A DNA stretch of 64,000 nucleotides, taken from positions 2,205-66,204 of the IMG/VR virus record IMGVR_UViG_3300011008_000057; one strand, given 5' to 3'. The position numbers and the translations under genes are program-made. Positions 39,807-46,400 of the stretch are shown one piece after another. The notes under the pieces were generated by a model. That model ran no database searches and had not been told where the DNA came from. It saw only the letters and a list, made by a program, of their open reading frames with translations. The DNA is from a virus. Lineage: Duplodnaviria; Caudoviricetes. Every line of letters begins with the position of its first letter. Positions within the stretch are counted from its first letter, which is position 1.

Positions 39807-41306
39807 ATGGCAGGAAAGAAAATAAACGATCCATCCTTGCTTGTCAATTCAGTGACAGGCGATCACATGATTCCCGTTGCAGACCCGAACTCCAATGCGC
39901 CAAAGGTTTGCACTGTAGACCAAATCTTCCTCTATCTTGAAGCAGCTCTTGGCGTCAACGAGATCCCTGTTTTCTCCACAACGTCAGACTATGCCGCGCC
40001 GGACCTGGTTAAGTACAATAACGTGCTTTATAGGTTCGTGGCTTATAAAGCTGCTGGCGTATGGGATTCGTCGAAGGTGGTGCAAACGAGTATCTTCGAG
40101 GAATTGCAGGCCATGCGAGACGGCGACAACGAGACCGTAAACGTCACCGTTGCATCTGGTGATAACAACCTTAACATTGAAGGATTGGTTGTCACGATGG
40201 AAGCGAACGGGGCTGTTACCAACGCGACGACAGATGAAAACGGCATTGCAACGTTTTCGGTTGCGAAAGGTGTGAAATACACGCTCTCGATGAGCGACCA
40301 GCAGGGGTATTATCATGTACCCACAAAGGCGTTCCGAGCAACCTACAATGAACGTTATGTGTTGTTCAATTTTGTGCCAAATGTGGAAACATTGACGGGA
40401 TATGAGGCCGTGAATGTATGCCTTTCCGTAGGTACGACGGGCGGAACGAGTGTGTTCCAGGAATCGAACGGCGAGAATGTGCAATACATCATAGATGGCG
40501 ACAGCGAGACCCACAATGCAGAAATCAACAACGGCTGGGCGGTTTTCAATGTGCCTATCAATTCGCATTACACCATCATTTTCCCACAAATTAGCGGATT
40601 CTCTCAGCCTCAAAACATGCAGTTTGTGGCTTCGTTGGAAAACAGGTATGTCATGGCTTATTATGCTTGGTATATTGGCGATGACGACATCCGCATCCTT
40701 GCCGACGATGACGTGGAATACACAATCGCAGCTTATGACGCATTGGCCACAAAGCCTACGGGAATCGCCATCCACGTTCAGCCGCTCAATTTGCTTTCGA
40801 AGGCAAGCGGACTTAATGATGGCAAGGCTTGCGATTTCTATATCGATGTCAATCTTGTTACTGCAAGCAAACAAATCCTCAACCAAAACGTTAACATCAC
40901 TGGTCTTCCGCAAATCGGTGGCTCGACGAGCGGTGTTGAGGCTTCGGACTGTCACTACAATCTTACTGGGATGCTCAATACGAGCAAAATACTTGAATTT
41001 GTCCAAAACAATAGCGGTTATACAAGTGCCGCAGCGACATGGGCGAGTGAGAAGACGCTGACCACCAATTCGAGAACTCTTACAGGATTCATAGGCGCGT
41101 TTGGTCAGCTGTGGGCCATCAAGTCCGCGCTTACTTCGATAAATGCAGCATTGGCTTTAACATCTGGAAAAGTGTTAAATATTAATAACGGCACCTGGTG
41201 GAGTTCCACCCAGTACAATTACGACACCATGTGGCGCCTGAATGGTGGCAGTCCCAACGGCAACGGCAAGAACTACAGTTACACTGTCCTGCCGTTGTTC
41301 GCTTAA
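39807..41306 (+). CDS. DGR target protein, putative receptor-binding tail adhesin with C-terminal CLec-type VR
   Basis: C-terminus WWSSTQYN...W...G......K.YSYTVLPLFA is encoded by VR; CBM-like and Ig-like repeats lie upstream. Confidence 0.9.
   Translation: MAGKKINDPSLLVNSVTGDHMIPVADPNSNAPKVCTVDQIFLYLEAALGVNEIPVFSTTSDYAAPDLVKYNNVLYRFVAYKAAGVWDSSKVVQTSIFEELQAMRDGDNETVNVTVASGDNNLNIEGLVVTMEANGAVTNATTDENGIATFSVAKGVKYTLSMSDQQGYYHVPTKAFRATYNERYVLFNFVPNVETLTGYEAVNVCLSVGTTGGTSVFQESNGENVQYIIDGDSETHNAEINNGWAVFNVPINSHYTIIFPQISGFSQPQNMQFVASLENRYVMAYYAWYIGDDDIRILADDDVEYTIAAYDALATKPTGIAIHVQPLNLLSKASGLNDGKACDFYIDVNLVTASKQILNQNVNITGLPQIGGSTSGVEASDCHYNLTGMLNTSKILEFVQNNSGYTSAAATWASEKTLTTNSRTLTGFIGAFGQLWAIKSALTSINAALALTSGKVLNINNGTWWSSTQYNYDTMWRLNGGSPNGNGKNYSYTVLPLFA
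41187..41302 (+). repeat. DGR variable repeat (VR), 116 nt
   Basis: Aligns ungapped to 41994-42109 with 12 mismatches, all at TR adenines. Confidence 0.97.
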
Positions 41307-41319
41307 TCAATCCATCCCT

Positions 41320-41351
41320 TCCGTAGGGCATCGCAAAGCGTGCCCTACGGA
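41320..41351 (+). other. DGR target-recognition hairpin/cruciform
   Basis: TCCGTAGGGCA-T-CGC-AAA-GCG-TGCCCTACGGA: 11-bp perfect stem plus 3 bp, 13 nt after the target stop codon. Confidence 0.85.
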
Positions 41352-41429
41352 CTTTATCACTTTAATGATTATTTTGTCGATTTTCTGAAGAAAGTTGAAC
41401 AGAATCGGTTTTTGTATGCGGAAAAGCGC

Positions 41430-41437
41430 TATTTTTG
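41430..41437 (+). promoter_or_regulatory. Bacteroidota -7 element upstream of avd
   Basis: TATTTTTG followed by CAC, 33 nt before the avd ATG. Confidence 0.5.
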
Positions 41438-41470
41438 CACGCTTTACAAGCGTGCAAAAATAGTTTTTGA

Positions 41471-41824
41471 ATGGCACTAACAAAGGATTTGGCGATACAC
41501 AAGGAATGTCTCAAGTTGCTGCATCTGGTTGACGTTGCTGTGGTAAACATGGATCGGTTCCAGAAATACAATATAGGCAACAGGATGTTCAATTATGTGC
41601 TTGACATGCGAGAACATATTGGTCATGCAAACAGGAGGAAGGGGCGGGAACGAATAGATGCGCTCAACGATTTGCTGGAGAAAAACGATAGTCTGGATTC
41701 GCTCGTCAATTATTGTCTTGAGTATCGCTATTTGAGCTTGCGGCAAGTGTCGGAAATTTCAAAGTCGATTGAGGTTGTAGGCAAGCAGGCGACCGCTTGG
41801 CGGAATTCGACAAAGGATGAATAA
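41471..41824 (+). CDS. avd: DGR accessory variability determinant (Avd-like four-helix bundle)
   Basis: 117 aa; DLAIHKEC..L...MDRFQKYNIGNRM...IGHAN...VGKQATAW; lies between target and TR. Confidence 0.85.
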   Translation: MALTKDLAIHKECLKLLHLVDVAVVNMDRFQKYNIGNRMFNYVLDMREHIGHANRRKGRERIDALNDLLEKNDSLDSLVNYCLEYRYLSLRQVSEISKSIEVVGKQATAWRNSTKDE

Positions 41825-41851
41825 GATTACAAGTTTGAAATATTGATATAC

Positions 41852-42152
41852 AAAAAAGAGGAACGAAGCCCACAGTCAGATTCGGTTTGTCGTACTGCGC
41901 TTCCGAGAGCACTGCGGGATGGATTGATAAGGGCATACTACCGTCTCTCTGGCAAGAGGCCAGAATCGGTTACTTCAAATAAGCGTATGCAGCAACGGCA
42001 CCTGGTGGAGTTCCACCCAGTACAATAACAACAACATGTGGAACATGAATGGTGGAAGTCCCAACAACAACAACAAGAACAACAGTTACACTGTCCTGCC
42101 GTTGTTCGCCTGTCAGACTTGCGCATTACTGCGGGACGGGTTCCTCTTTTTT
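41852..42152 (+). ncRNA. Putative DGR template RNA (leader + TR + 3' spacer)
   Basis: Ends are complementary: AAAAAAGAGGAAC (41852-64) pairs with GTTCCTCTTTTTT (42140-52), enclosing TR. Confidence 0.6.
41994..42109 (+). repeat. DGR template repeat (TR), 116 nt
   Basis: AAC-rich invariant copy of VR (40 adenines, 13 AAY codons), intergenic between avd and RT. Confidence 0.97.
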
Positions 42153-42164
42153 TCTTGATTCGCA

Positions 42165-43373
42165 ATGTCAGATTGGGTCACTATAGAAGACATAGAGGAG
42201 GCTTACTTCGATTTTCTGCGCCACAAGCGGAGCAAGCGGTCGGCCTATTTGTTTTCTATCACAGCACATCATGAGCTTCCGCGCCTTTGCTAGGAATTGA
42301 ACAGCCACACTTACGAAATCGGTGATAGCATTGCATTCTGTGTCACAAGGCCAAAACTACGCGAGGTGTTTGCTGCCGACTCACGCGACAGAATCGTACA
42401 CCATTTACTCATCCTCAAATTTGGCGACATGTTTGAGCATTATAGCATAAACAACTCGTTCAACTGCCGTAAAGGTAAGGGAAATACTGCAATGACACGG
42501 TTCGCGCATGAAGCATTGACACAGGTAGGCAAAGACGGATGGGTGATGAAGCTCGATGTGAAAGGATGCTTCATGAGCATTGACAAAGACATTCTATGGT
42601 CGAAGCTCAGTTATGCGGTTTCCGATTGGTGTGACAGGTCCGATGAGCTTCGCGACCATAAGGAAGATTGGCTGTGGTTATGGAAAAAGGTGGTGTACCA
42701 TCGCCCTGAACAGCATTGCATCATTCATGGTGATCCGAATCTTTTCAAAAAACTGCCCGCTGACAAGACTCTTTTCAAGACGAAAGGGAAGGGGCTCGCA
42801 ATAGGCAACCTCACTTCGCAGATGCTTGCCAACTTCTATTTTTCGGAAATGGACCATCGACTTGCCGCAATCGCGGCCCGTCATGGTGGTTATTACGGAA
42901 GATACATGGACGACATCTTTTCGGCTTATCCAAATAAGGAAGAGATGACCGACACCATACAAGTTGTTAGAGAAGAATTGTCAAATCTTTGCATGAGAAT
43001 CAATCCGAAAAAGGTCTATATACAAAGGGCATGTCTTTCGGTTTCTGTGATCGGAACAGTACACTGCGACGATAGGATCTATGTCGGAAAGAGAACGATG
43101 GGGAACGCATGGAACCTTTTGAAAGAGATAGAAGGTTACACCGACGAATATTGCGAGGAAAACGCAGAGAAGATTGCATCACGAATTAATGCCTACATGG
43201 GCTTCATGCGCGATGGCTGCACCTACAAGAAACGCAAGTGGTTGTGGGACAACATCCCTCAAAATTTCCGCAGGCTCACCTACTGCAAAAACATGAAGGT
43301 GGTGAAGGTCAAGAACATTTATAAAAAGAAGCACCAACGTGATTTGTCGCTCCATAAAATAGCACGTCGATGA
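42165..43373 (+). pseudogene. DGR reverse transcriptase with in-frame TAG at codon 43 (42291-93)
   Basis: MSDWVTIEDIEEAYFDFLRHKRSK...LPRLC*ELNSHTYEIG...PKLREVFAADSRDRIVHH; GLAIGNLTSQ and RYMDD motifs. Confidence 0.85.
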
Positions 43374-43421: not shown

Positions 43422-46400
43422 ATGAGTCTCCTTGCAAAAGGTTCAATATTACTATCTGCTATTGACGACGCATATTCGGTTACTATGACGCCGAACAATT
43501 TCGTCATCAATGCTTCATACGATGGTAGCACCGTCGACCTCAATGATGCTTTCTCTGATATACGAGTTTTTCGTGGCGAAACTCCAGAGGCTTTCAGCAT
43601 CGACATTGATTCGTCGAGCAGCATCGGCATTGCATACACGGTTACGAGCGTCGATAGTCTTGTAAAGCGTATCAGGATTACGGAAATTCCTAATGGAGAA
43701 GTGAATGGATGGATCTCTTTTGTGATTACAACTGTGCTTACGGGACATGTCATCCTTGCAACGCTCAACTTCACAGTTGTGCGTGAAACGACCATGTTCG
43801 ATTGGATTCTTGACTGGGAAAACAACAAGACAACAATTGGAGATACATATCTCATTACGCCAAAGTTGTTTGTCGGCCATCGAACCCAGGGAATTGGTCT
43901 CGGAACGTTGAGCGGTGTCTATATTGGACCAGACGACCAGACTGTCGGAACGGCTGGTATCTATGGATTGCATGGCGGCGAAGAGATTTTCCATATCAAC
44001 AAGGATGGAGGCGTCATAGGCGGGTGGACTATTGGAACGGAATACCTGTATAGCGCCCATGTGTTGCTTGGCGCAGACACTTCTTACGTTGGTGTATCGC
44101 CGTCCGCACTGACGGAATCCATCGTTTCTGCAAGCGGTTTCTCTCACAGGGACATTGTTCACAATCACGGCGGCGTTGCCATGTTCTACAATACGGCACA
44201 GGACTATGGTCTCGAAGGCTATCTGCCAGCCACTATGTCTGGTGGGACAACGACGCTTAACAAGGTCTTCAGCCTTGGCAATGAAAACAAGATAGCCGCT
44301 TGGAATTTCGATACCGATTCGCTTTGGATCGGAACCAAGTCGAATGTCGCGGGTGCAGGCACTTCCAGTAGCGGCAGTATCACCATCGGCAGTAACGGCT
44401 TGCGCGGCTACGGATGGTATATAGACACTGGCGGCAATGCGAGTTTCGCAAACGGTCATGTAACGCTTGGTTATTCGACAAACCTTATAGCAGGTTGGAA
44501 AATCACTCAAGGCAGGCTCTCGACGTCTCATGTCGCACTTGTTTCAGATGTGAATAACGGAGCCGTATTCGTGTCGGCATCAAATATCGGAAACATCGCA
44601 AACGCGAATCTTGCATCCGCTATCGAAGGCAGCGGTGGCATTTACATGCGTTCCTTGTCGAATGGGTCGGAATTGGCGGGGTACTCTACTGGCGGAAATC
44701 TGCTTTTCTATCTGTCGACGACCCATCCGTCACAAATTGCGGCTTGGTATTTCGACAACCAGGCTTTATACATCGGCACAAAAGCCACAAGCGGTTTCAC
44801 TTCGGCATCGGGTTACATCACGCTTAGTTCAACTGGCATCAGAGGCTTCAAGTGGCGCATTGAATCCACCGGGGTTGCTGTGTTTGCAGGTGGCTTCGTC
44901 CAGTTCAATGTCGACGGTGGCGGCTATTTGGCCAACCAGAACATCATCTGGGATGCGTCTGGCAACATTGAGTTTGCTGGTTCGTCGATGGAACTGACAG
45001 GTGCCATCTATGTTAAGGACGAGAACGGTGTCATCAAGGCTGGAATGCTTGCGGCGGGTTCGGGTTCGGCGGGCATCAGGTTTTTCGCAGGTGATTCAAC
45101 ACCGGCAAGAGCGCCATTCCGTGTAGACGAAACGGGGCTATTCTACGCTTCCAATGCAAATGTCACGGGAACAATAAGTTCCACGAATGGTTCCATTGGA
45201 GGATGGACCATCGACAGCGATTCCATATTCAAAGGTACGAAAGCGACATCAGGATTCACGGGAGCGTCGGGGTCGATTACCATTGGCAGCACCGGTATTA
45301 GGGGCTACAAGTGGCGCTTGGAAAACACAGGTGAGGCTGTTTTTGCCGATGGCAAAGTCGTTTTCCATAGCAACGGTTCCGGCAACATCGCCAACGGAGC
45401 CATATATTGGACCACTAACGGAGGGACATTCATATCTGGCTCCTTATTGATTACTGATGGAAATCTTTTGGTTAGAGCTGGTATTTCGTCAGTAGGATCT
45501 GGCTCAAATGGCATCAGGTTCTTTGCAGGTGGACCAACTTTAACAACGGCCCCTTTCAGAGTTGATGAAAATGGCCATGTTTACGCATCTGACATTGATG
45601 CAGATGGTGGATATATAGGCAGTTGGATTATTTCCGATAATGGAACCATCATATCGGACAATAGTGGAACCCCGAAAGTCACGCTCGACGCTTCAGGGAG
45701 CATAAGGCTATATATAAACAGTTTGGATGCCTGCGTCGAGCACATGGTGTGCGGAGGTGAAGGGTATTCTCGCGGGATTGGATCTGACATAAGACTCGAT
45801 GCCGACCTTGGTATCATCAGGATTAAGACGGTAGGCGACGTGTCAGGTGGAGTGGGTTCGGTTCTTTTGACACCGACAGGAATATATGCAGACAGGGCCG
45901 GTATGCTTGCCCCGTCAAGTGACGACACCTATTCCCAACGATCGGCTATCGTTGGAGATGGAAAGTCGACGCTTGTCGCTTCAAGCCATAACAATGGCAG
46001 TGACGAAAACTGTATAATAGGCGTATATGGGTCTGCAACCAACACGCGGGCATCATCGCCTGCACCGTGTTATGGCGGTTTCTTCGACGGTTTGAAGATG
46101 CGGGGGCTGTATCTTGGGAGGAAAGTTATCACGACAACTGGAAGCCATCAACTTGACGGGAAAGACACGCTTGTCATCGCTCTGCCACCAGTGAACGGAG
46201 TCTCTGCTAATATCTATCTGCCAACGGAAGGTGCCTATGAGGGCCGCACGGTCATAGTCAAATTGCTTAATTCTGGTGATGCTATGGTGTTTCCAGGAAG
46301 TGGTTCCTATATGAATTCCACGACCAATACAGGAGGGGTGTACATCGCGAACGGAGAGACGTGGGTGTTTATATTGGTCAAAATACCGGTGACAACATCG

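Follow-up and report, generated by a model that had tools for sequence, protein, structure and literature searches.

In Bordetella phage BPP-1, experiments have established both a TR:Sp duplex (TR, template repeat; Sp, spacer) and priming at Sp A56 (PMC6182149; bioRxiv 10.1101/2023.10.23.563531). The synthesis of cDNA in diversity-generating retroelements (DGRs) is independent of the target, and Naorem et al. (2017) proposed that an RNA primer linked to the cDNA pairs with the DNA of the initiation of mutagenic homing (IMH) element, which would explain the directionality of the process (PMC5703328). If the terminal repeats of TR and the variable repeat (VR) are identical, as they are in the locus described here, the discrimination must reach downstream of them (PMC5758913). 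The way in which the cDNA locates and enters VR and the role of IMH are termed incompletely understood in papers from 2025 to 2026, and the searchable literature yielded no direct test of primer-IMH pairing as proposed in 2017. The element described here lends this idea independent support from natural variation. A sequence-only reading of the locus, which our analysis followed up, had regarded a pairing between the leader of a DGR RNA and its target as undescribed; the proposal of primer-IMH pairing already contains it (PMC5703328).

The window that we analysed is a 64-kb stretch of phage DNA, and all coordinates refer to its + strand. The DGR target gene (39807-41306) encodes a tail-fibre-like protein of 499 amino acids with VR at its C-terminal end; upstream of it lies the gene for a protein of 1982 amino acids, and the same arrangement is found in relatives. 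VR (41187-41302) and TR (41994-42109) form a direct repeat of 116 nt with 90% identity, and all 12 mismatches over the 116 nt are at adenines of TR, as is characteristic of a DGR. The putative avd gene (41471-41824) occupies the same position in relatives, and the size (117 amino acids) and position of its product match the expectation for a DGR accessory protein; its match to the Pfam family bAvd (PF22296) has an E value of 1.8e-7 and a score of 32.1 bits, which is under the curated cut-off of 40 bits. The gene for the reverse transcriptase (RT; 42165-43373; Pfam RVT_1, E 1.7e-15) is interrupted by an in-frame TAG codon at 42291-42293. The intact RTs of relatives have 401 or 402 amino acids, with A, D or E at this codon, and since TAG also terminates other long reading frames of the window, we rejected recoding as an explanation. 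Due to this stop codon, the DGR copy in the present record may be inactive. Homologues of the RT were plentiful (n=1676), and many of the related loci that we retrieved had an A-biased TR/VR pair of their own.

Between the target gene and avd there is a terminator-like palindrome with a 17-bp stem and a T run (41428-41468) that is conserved in most relatives; an Rfam search at E values up to 1 gave just two chance matches to miRNAs, both over this palindrome. Closer to VR, a perfect inverted repeat at 41320-41351 forms the target hairpin or cruciform, with an 11-bp stem (41320-41330 with 41341-41351) and an inner 3-bp stem. In six lineages, 100% of the cells of this hairpin are paired, with three pairs altered on both sides. 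The segment in front of this GC-rich repeat (41302-41318) is the candidate IMH equivalent: it starts at the last base shared by TR and VR, and it differs at most positions from the corresponding flank of TR (42109-42125), with scattered identities in common.

Within this candidate primer-binding segment, the core 13-mer ATCAATCCATCCC (41306-41318) is the exact reverse complement of GGGATGGATTGAT (41916-41928) in the leader 5' of TR. Direct comparison bore out this observation of the sequence-only reading together with two others, i.e. that the inverted repeat extends to 16/17 positions between 41302-41318 and the leader segment 41916-41931 if either A41305 or A41306 is bulged out, and that it occupies exactly the gap from the end of the TR/VR homology (41302) to the base of the target hairpin (41320). 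The earlier chance estimate of about 1e-4 was also close to our own: we calculate about 2e-4 for this pair of regions (a background density of about 6e-8 per position pair x 17 x 170 positions). Allowing up to one mismatch, the 13-mer occurs only at these two places in the 64-kb window. Long-range inverted repeats (up to 1 kb apart, seed of at least 12 nt) number just five in the whole window, and two of them are elements of the DGR RNA. None of 100 shuffles of the VR flank paired with the leader segment as strongly as the real flank.

It had been stated before that the leader segment lacks a partner within the predicted RNA. Here our analysis disagrees: in the RNAalifold consensus of five lineages, positions 41913-41932 pair with the 17 nt that directly follow TR (42109-42125) in a helix of 13 predicted pairs with bulges. 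The leader stretch 41911-41933 with its core 41916-41928 can thus be regarded as a putative primer strand, and 42109-42125, its predicted imperfect partner, as the equivalent of IMH*, which in BPP-1 is located at the 3' end of TR as IMH is at that of VR. In six lineages, 93.6% of the cells of this helix are paired, as compared to 24-58% when the strands are slid; against shuffles, the match of the primer strand with the TR flank is not significant within the present clade (p 0.06-0.5). The 3' end of the strand is the conserved motif GATAAGGG (41926-41933). In BPP-1, the priming nucleotide is an adenosine followed by G, and by analogy A41929 and A41930, which are followed by GGG in this motif, are possibly the priming nucleotides here.

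A second long-range helix encloses TR: 41852-41876 pairs with 42128-42152 with a complementarity of 80% over 25 nt, 13 perfect pairs among them, and is also part of the RNAalifold consensus. In length and position it resembles the cPRT Stop duplex (about 13 bp), of which we consider it the analogue. The 11 pairs at its base are formed in nearly all cells of five lineages (one cell is A-C) and are near-invariant. Between the primer strand and TR, the consensus predicts a structured junction (41933-41990) with a stem (41933-38/41985-90) and inner hairpins. The spacer after TR is just 55 nt long, and the post-TR partner together with one strand of the closing duplex (42128-42152) takes up all of it; other RNA elements must therefore lie in the 170-nt leader.

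Close relatives of the DGR were obtained by protein look-ups and one metagenome scan, in which three of seven matches belonged to the clade and the others were unrelated; scans of viral contigs with RT peptide patterns and with the leader motif yielded no close relatives, and a scan of genome contigs for a leader 24-mer yielded no match. Contigs aligned from sequencing runs showed no joints; by their nature they do not record RNA ends or RNA-cDNA junctions. Seven related phage lineages, with RTs that are 79-86% identical, have retained the leader/post-VR repeat, and in the same lineages the neighbouring intergenic DNA diverges freely. Among the 16 leader/post-VR pairs in six lineages, 14 are invariant; of the other two, one shows a compensated change and one, an outer pair, is frequently mismatched. 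The compensated pair was found in the lineage L004/L005/L105/L106, drawn from four independent assemblies: a change of C to T in the post-VR segment is accompanied by a change of G to A at the exact partner in the leader. We estimate the chance probability of this single event at about 0.05-0.1. The predicted post-TR partner of the same leader base has changed in step with it (C to T); we give this apparent triple covariation of leader, post-VR and post-TR positions little weight, however, since L101 breaks the post-TR pair and the post-TR region varies freely. Two changes lack compensation, i.e. a 1-nt deletion inside the leader 13-mer of L003 and a C to A change at 41317 in at least four lineages, and the conserved core is therefore just 11 bp long. 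Thus, the covariation among related DGRs by which the sequence-only reading wanted its idea to be judged was found in part: the repeat is retained in seven lineages with one compensated change, but the L003 deletion and the change at 41317 have no counterpart. The loci L098-L100, in which identical post-VR DNA is combined with a different leader, lack TR and most of the RT gene and were rejected as a test case because they are deletion remnants.

Of the two flanks, that of VR forms the stronger duplex with the primer strand: in the window, the duplex energies are -26 kcal/mol for the VR flank and -14 to -16 kcal/mol for the TR flank, and all five lineages favour the VR flank (-17.9 to -28.1 as compared to -12.5 to -17.5 kcal/mol). 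This is the asymmetry that the model of Naorem et al. (2017) requires of IMH and IMH*, and it is also present in BPP-1 (AY029185), with -16.7 kcal/mol for IMH and -11.1 kcal/mol for IMH*. Judged by its sequence, L043 is a second, independent case: its leader segment CCGTTAATGA is a 10/10 complement across its own VR junction, and the pairing with its own TR junction is weaker.

The parallel to BPP-1 extends to the architecture. There, the counterpart of the leader/post-TR pairing is that of Sp47-56 with TR118-129, and in both systems one RNA strand pairs, here by prediction, imperfectly with the 3' end of TR and better with the 3' end of VR, at a site that has the mutagenised positions of VR on one side and a GC-rich hairpin on the other. 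However, the order of the RNA is permuted: in BPP-1, the primer strand is located in the 140-nt spacer between TR and RT, downstream of TR, whereas here it is located about 65 nt upstream of TR in the 170-nt leader. Moreover, the binding site lies wholly outside the recognisable TR/VR homology, unlike in BPP-1, and the duplex is longer (13 to 16 pairs as compared to nine contiguous pairs with IMH). It has to be kept in mind that priming was mapped in BPP-1 whereas the priming site here is predicted from sequence, and that the two RTs are just distantly related.

With moderate confidence, we suggest that the leader segment 41911-41933 is a cis-priming primer strand that also docks the cDNA at the VR flank and thereby gives direction. 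In this mechanism, the imperfect pairing of the strand with 42109-42125 in the RNA would set up self-primed reverse transcription at the 3' boundary of TR, possibly from an A of GATAAGG, and the primer RNA would remain attached to the 5' end of the cDNA after synthesis. In vivo, this cDNA-linked RNA might then anneal to the + strand at 41302-41318, directly before the hairpin; since the cDNA anneals to the same strand, primer RNA and cDNA would be contiguous on it. The preference of the primer strand for the flank of VR over that of TR would confer the TR-to-VR directionality. Docking is favoured by the conservation and the one compensatory change, by the exact fit of the site between VR and the hairpin, and by the asymmetry shared with BPP-1. 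That the RNA pairs with the + strand beside VR and aids homing, as the earlier reading had suggested, is thus the best-supported view; its idea of a free-standing guide had to be given up, since the segment is the strand that is predicted to pair with the 3' flank of TR, likely as a template:primer duplex. A guiding role is plausible but not new. What is new are the permuted layout of the RNA, the long pairing outside the TR/VR homology and the natural covariation. RNA-guided retrohoming by short base pairing beside the site of cDNA installation is known from the EBS/IBS interactions of group II introns. These, however, are introns with a ribozyme and target-primed reverse transcription, so that the resemblance is functional only.

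How general are these pairings? We compared 21 family representatives of distant DGRs (RTs 33-50% identical) using cognate and non-cognate flanks. Directly 5' of a conserved A-rich-GG(G) motif, the GG of which ends about 40-100 nt before TR, these DGRs have a homologous leader segment. Complementarity of this segment to the cognate TR 3' flank is found across the family, with 11 of the 21 representatives in the top 10% (binomial p 1.4e-6). For the VR flank, this was the case in 4 of the 21 families (p 0.15), and the present clade, L043 and, marginally, L012 are the only ones with VR-flank complementarity in the top tenth. Among related DGR loci (86 repeat pairs), the longest exact leader/post-VR complements were at the chance level of 5-8 nt, and tests of duplex energy for the leader/VR-flank pairing were negative in most families; we therefore rejected leader/post-VR complementarity as a universal rule of DGRs. 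In the relatives with about 50% RT identity (L088-L094, L095/L096), the homologous part of the leader contains a local hairpin, CGAAT-NNNN-ATTCG, and we found no significant VR-flank complement. Since a significant VR-flank pairing is missing from these relatives and from most distant families, it is not a general requirement of this DGR family. The complementarity in related DGRs that the sequence-only reading had called for is thus present in the close clade and in L043, but missing in most of the 21 distant families.

These results bear on the possibility that the complementarity has no present function and is either a relic of ancestral identity of IMH and IMH* or a chance match kept through recent descent. 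The clade is indeed shallow (RTs 79-86% identical), the 14 invariant pairs of 16 are uninformative either way, the post-VR and post-TR flanks have their scattered identities, and other families of this DGR group do without VR-flank pairing. However, the local chance of such a match is about 2e-4, and a relic should favour the TR flank, which needs the pairing, whereas the opposite was observed in five of five lineages. Moreover, the intergenic DNA past the hairpin is heavily diverged, but within the 17-nt post-VR flank just two sites vary, with a compensated change at one of these, and the same asymmetry occurs independently in BPP-1 and L043. We therefore regard an absence of function as unlikely.

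Somewhat less probable still is that the leader pairs as RNA with the 3' UTR of the target mRNA, which the sequence-only reading had given as its alternative, or with a read-through transcript (target-avd-TR), rather than with DNA, so that the primer strand would be masked for regulation or a processing site created. The mRNA has the sequence of the + strand, and all the complementarity and covariation would fit equally well; moreover, a leader/post-VR helix forms in the fold of 41290-42165. The conserved terminator-like 17-bp palindrome with its T run separates the two segments, however, and a single transcript is thus not the simplest case. A site flush with the end of VR and with the hairpin, and the parallel to BPP-1, where the primer is covalently joined to the cDNA, suit docking on DNA better. 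We know of no function for RNA-RNA pairing of this kind in DGRs.

Finally, we consider it very improbable that the primer strand also serves as a template which rewrites the post-VR DNA by occasional copying across the RNA-cDNA junction, so that the paired substitutions (G to A in the leader, C to T after VR) would be accounted for by information transfer rather than by selection for pairing: such a footprint would agree with a post-VR segment that is the leader complement from the VR boundary onward with one extra A, with a compensated position closer to VR than the persistently mismatched one, and with the non-templated insertions at primer-cDNA junctions of BPP-1 (PMC5703328), but the leader deletion of L003 and, in at least four lineages, the mismatch at 41317 were not transferred, most related DGR families have no such footprint, and BPP-1 does not transfer markers that lie 3' of its initiation site, its primer presumably being removed by RNase H and Pol I (PMC5703328). 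If rewriting did occur, the element would renew its own recognition site, and a mutation in the leader would reach the target as well.

For the preferred reading, i.e. priming and docking by the same strand, the element offers a cleaner test system, with an RNA-target duplex of 13-16 bp outside the TR/VR homology. Targeting and priming should be separately mutable since the targeting duplex differs in sequence from the weaker duplex of primer and TR flank. If base pairing sets the target, it would be possible to retarget DGRs by design for use in directed evolution.

The element also has company. Among the avd-TR-RT DGRs of gut and rumen phages that we retrieved from IMG/VR and metagenomes (e.g. 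L026, L018, L061 and L088; RTs 33-52% identical), the order target-avd-TR-RT is the same. Their spacers are short, and their leaders are about 150-200 nt long and contain the A-rich-GG(G) motif as well as a segment with complementarity to the 3' flank of TR; unlike in the present element, this segment has no significant complement in the post-VR DNA of most of them. This suggests that phages of the gut and rumen harbour a large group of DGRs, matching no Rfam family, in which the RNA parts for priming and protein binding are upstream of TR. The ACCG...CGGTTA...AAG layout of the junction between primer strand and TR is found again in the leaders of distant DGRs.

The window comes from an IMG/VR virus record of 66 kb, and gut metagenomes of goats and other ruminants contain near-identical DNA. 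The window's DGR cassette is complete and lies entirely on the + strand: The target gene (39807-41306) with the VR (41187-41302) is followed by the target hairpin (41320-41351), 17 nt beyond the VR, a terminator-like palindrome (41428-41468), avd (41471-41824), a non-coding leader of 170 nt, the TR (41994-42109), a spacer of 55 nt and the reverse transcriptase (RT) gene (42165-43373). The 12 differences between TR and VR all fall at TR adenines. The RT frame has a single in-frame TAG (42291-42293, codon 43), where intact relatives of 401-402 amino acids have A, D or E (GCG, GAT, GAA or GAC). The codon does not look recoded; more plausibly, it inactivates the RT or is an error of sequencing. 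TAG also terminates other long frames in the window. The palindrome between target hairpin and avd is perfect (16-17 bp, with a T run) and is kept in most relatives. Both of its arms read TATTTTTG, which fits the Bacteroidota -7 promoter motif, TAnnTTTG, and the element may combine terminator and promoter.

The leader carries an antisense copy of the DNA just downstream of the VR: Positions 41916-41928 are the exact reverse complement of 41306-41318, and with one bulged A the match grows to 16/17 (41302-41318 with 41916-41931). The paired post-VR segment is exactly the whole gap between the end of the TR/VR homology and the hairpin base. The sequence-only reading had given a rough chance estimate of about 1e-4 for the 13 nt, and our analysis confirms that the complementarity is real and not due to chance: Within 1 kb, long-range inverted repeats of comparable quality occur five times in the window, and two of these belong to the DGR RNA. 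From this background, about 2e-4 matches are expected between the two short regions, and none of 100 flank shuffles paired as well as the real flank.

Phage contigs of the same group were reached via RT and Avd homologues, and one extra variant (X2) came from sequencing-run contigs; seven lineages carry both segments. All 13 pairs are kept in the window and in L103/L104. L101, L109/L112/L114 and X2 have an uncompensated C-to-A change at 41317 that leaves 11 contiguous pairs and one more, and in L003 the leader 13-mer has lost 1 nt. Four separate assemblies (L004/L005/L105/L106) share the 41317 mismatch and, in addition, combine a C-to-T change at the middle post-VR position with G-to-A at its exact leader partner. 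Covariation, proposed earlier as a check on the pairing, was found at one pair; the 41317 mismatch and the L003 deletion are uncompensated. Across six lineages, 14 of 16 pairs are invariant; of the other two, one shows compensation and the second is frequently mismatched. The adjacent hairpin is 100% paired with three compensated pairs, and past it the DNA diverges freely among relatives. Goat gut contigs show population variants at 41317, where C to A weakens the outer duplex pair, and at 42121, an unpaired post-TR flank position (G to A, three runs).

The earlier view that the leader segment has no partner within the RNA did not hold. A consensus fold of five lineages (RNAalifold) predicts that 41852-41876 and 42128-42152 form a closing duplex, that the RNA immediately 5' of the TR folds into a structured junction, and that leader 41913-41932 joins the 17 nt following the TR (42109-42125) in an interrupted helix of 13 pairs. 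Across six lineages, 93.6% of the cells of this helix are paired, as compared to 24-58% if one side is slid. The leader G-to-A change of the L105 lineage is also matched in the post-TR flank, by C to T; L101 breaks this pair. The 55-nt spacer has no room beyond the post-TR partner and the closing-duplex strand. Leader (41911-41919) and spacer (42128-42136) each contain one copy of ACTGCGGGA, and the leader copy shares 4 nt with the 13-mer. Since either copy can pair with 41868-41876, the DGR RNA may alternate between two folds.

On balance, the sequence comparisons lead us to favour the idea that the leader segment (41911-41933) is a primer strand that anneals beside the VR and favours TR-to-VR transfer. 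Within the RNA, it would keep the 3' boundary of the TR in place for self-priming. Once linked to the cDNA in a branched or joined product, it would anneal to the + strand at 41302-41318; its 3' side would then abut the end of the VR, the annealing site of the cDNA 5' end, with the hairpin immediately past the paired segment. As the VR flank pairs more strongly than the TR flank, transfer from TR to VR would be favoured. The sequences themselves show the complementarities, their conservation, the compensated change and the pairing of leader and TR flank across the wider family, whereas we infer which nucleotide primes, that RNA and DNA pair in cells and that this pairing affects homing. In phage BPP-1, cDNA synthesis is self-primed at spacer A56, the end of the Sp47-56/TR118-129 duplex inside the TR-end element IMH* (PMC6182149; bioRxiv 10.1101/2023.10.23.563531; PMC5703328). 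In the BPP-1 sequences (AY029185), Sp47-57 is complementary to nine contiguous bases of the VR-end IMH, and to IMH* only with mismatches (-16.7 and -11.1 kcal/mol, respectively); in the window clade, the energies range from -17.9 to -28.1 kcal/mol with the VR flank as partner and from -12.5 to -17.5 kcal/mol with the TR flank. In both systems, the calculated pairing is stronger on the VR side; the primer strand lies in the spacer in BPP-1 and would lie upstream of the TR in the window. Naorem et al. 2017 (PMC5703328) reported more extensive RNA primer pairing with IMH than with IMH*, and proposed that directionality arises when the primer, still linked to the cDNA, pairs with IMH DNA, the hairpin aiding strand invasion. 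The guide function put forward in the sequence-only reading is the best-supported reading of the leader/post-VR pairing, but this kind of mechanism is not new, having been published for BPP-1. According to later studies, integration is still incompletely understood and cDNA annealing to the lagging-strand template is favoured; we found no direct test of primer-IMH pairing in the searchable literature. With identical terminal TR/VR repeats, as in the window, discrimination must reach downstream (Wu et al., PMC5758913).

We collected about 80 further DGR loci (RT 31-52% identical to that of the window), with the common order avd, long leader, TR, short spacer and RT. Their leaders share an A-rich-GG(G) motif, the GG ending about 40-100 nt 5' of the TR (GATAAGGG in the window), followed by a stem enclosing ACCG...CGGTTA...AAG. 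In the leaders of L008-L096, the 110 nt 5' of the TR contain, in this order, GAGAG, a variable strand, the A-rich-GG(G) motif and a stem around ACCG-hairpin-CGGTTAAGAAYAAG. This conserved layout recurs in many DGRs of gut and rumen phages and is a candidate for a new RNA family; the window's leader copy matched no Rfam family. The 30-nt stretch that ends at the motif complements the cognate TR 3' flank far above chance (p <=0.05 against shuffles in at least 12 families; with non-cognate flanks as the control, 11 of 21 family representatives ranked in the top tenth, binomial p 1.4e-6). Complementarity to the VR flank is not general among these representatives (4/21 in the top tenth, p 0.15): It is clear in the window clade and in L043, and a weaker match of 8 nt is present in one abundant family. 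L043 (2348-3271 of a 356-kb IMG/VR contig) is an independent DGR with an RT 37% identical to that of the window; its leader CCGTTAATGA is a perfect 10/10 complement across the VR 3' junction and pairs with the TR junction through wobbles only, which makes it a second natural case of a putative primer strand biased toward the VR. The nearest outgroup (RT about 50% identical) has a local hairpin at the homologous leader position.

A functionless relic or a chance match is improbable in view of this independent recurrence, the statistics of the match and the reversed asymmetry, i.e. the better pairing of the VR flank than of the TR flank. Slightly less probable still, the leader segment might pair with RNA, either a read-through transcript or the mRNA of the target gene; a terminator-like element stands between both sites, and the BPP-1 parallel also argues against this. 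That the post-VR segment is a footprint written into the target from the primer RNA is very unlikely, as uncompensated mismatches persist.

What is new is the permuted DGR RNA with its putative primer strand upstream of the TR, a layout that is absent from Rfam and apparently common to many DGRs of gut and rumen phages, a putative long primer-target duplex wholly outside the TR/VR homology, and natural covariation that supports the pairing. DGRs of the window type provide a clean system for testing primer-target pairing. L098-L100 (L098:2855-3294) are natural deletion remnants that retain target, VR, post-VR 13-mer, hairpin and avd intact and have lost half of the leader, the TR and most of the RT gene, the leader breaking after about 75 nt and being joined to the RT gene 3' end. 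Finally, an RT-gene segment of 13-15 nt (TCGCGCATGAAGC..., 42502-42519) has two inverted copies downstream, one within the RT gene (43201-43213) and one just past it (43507-43521).
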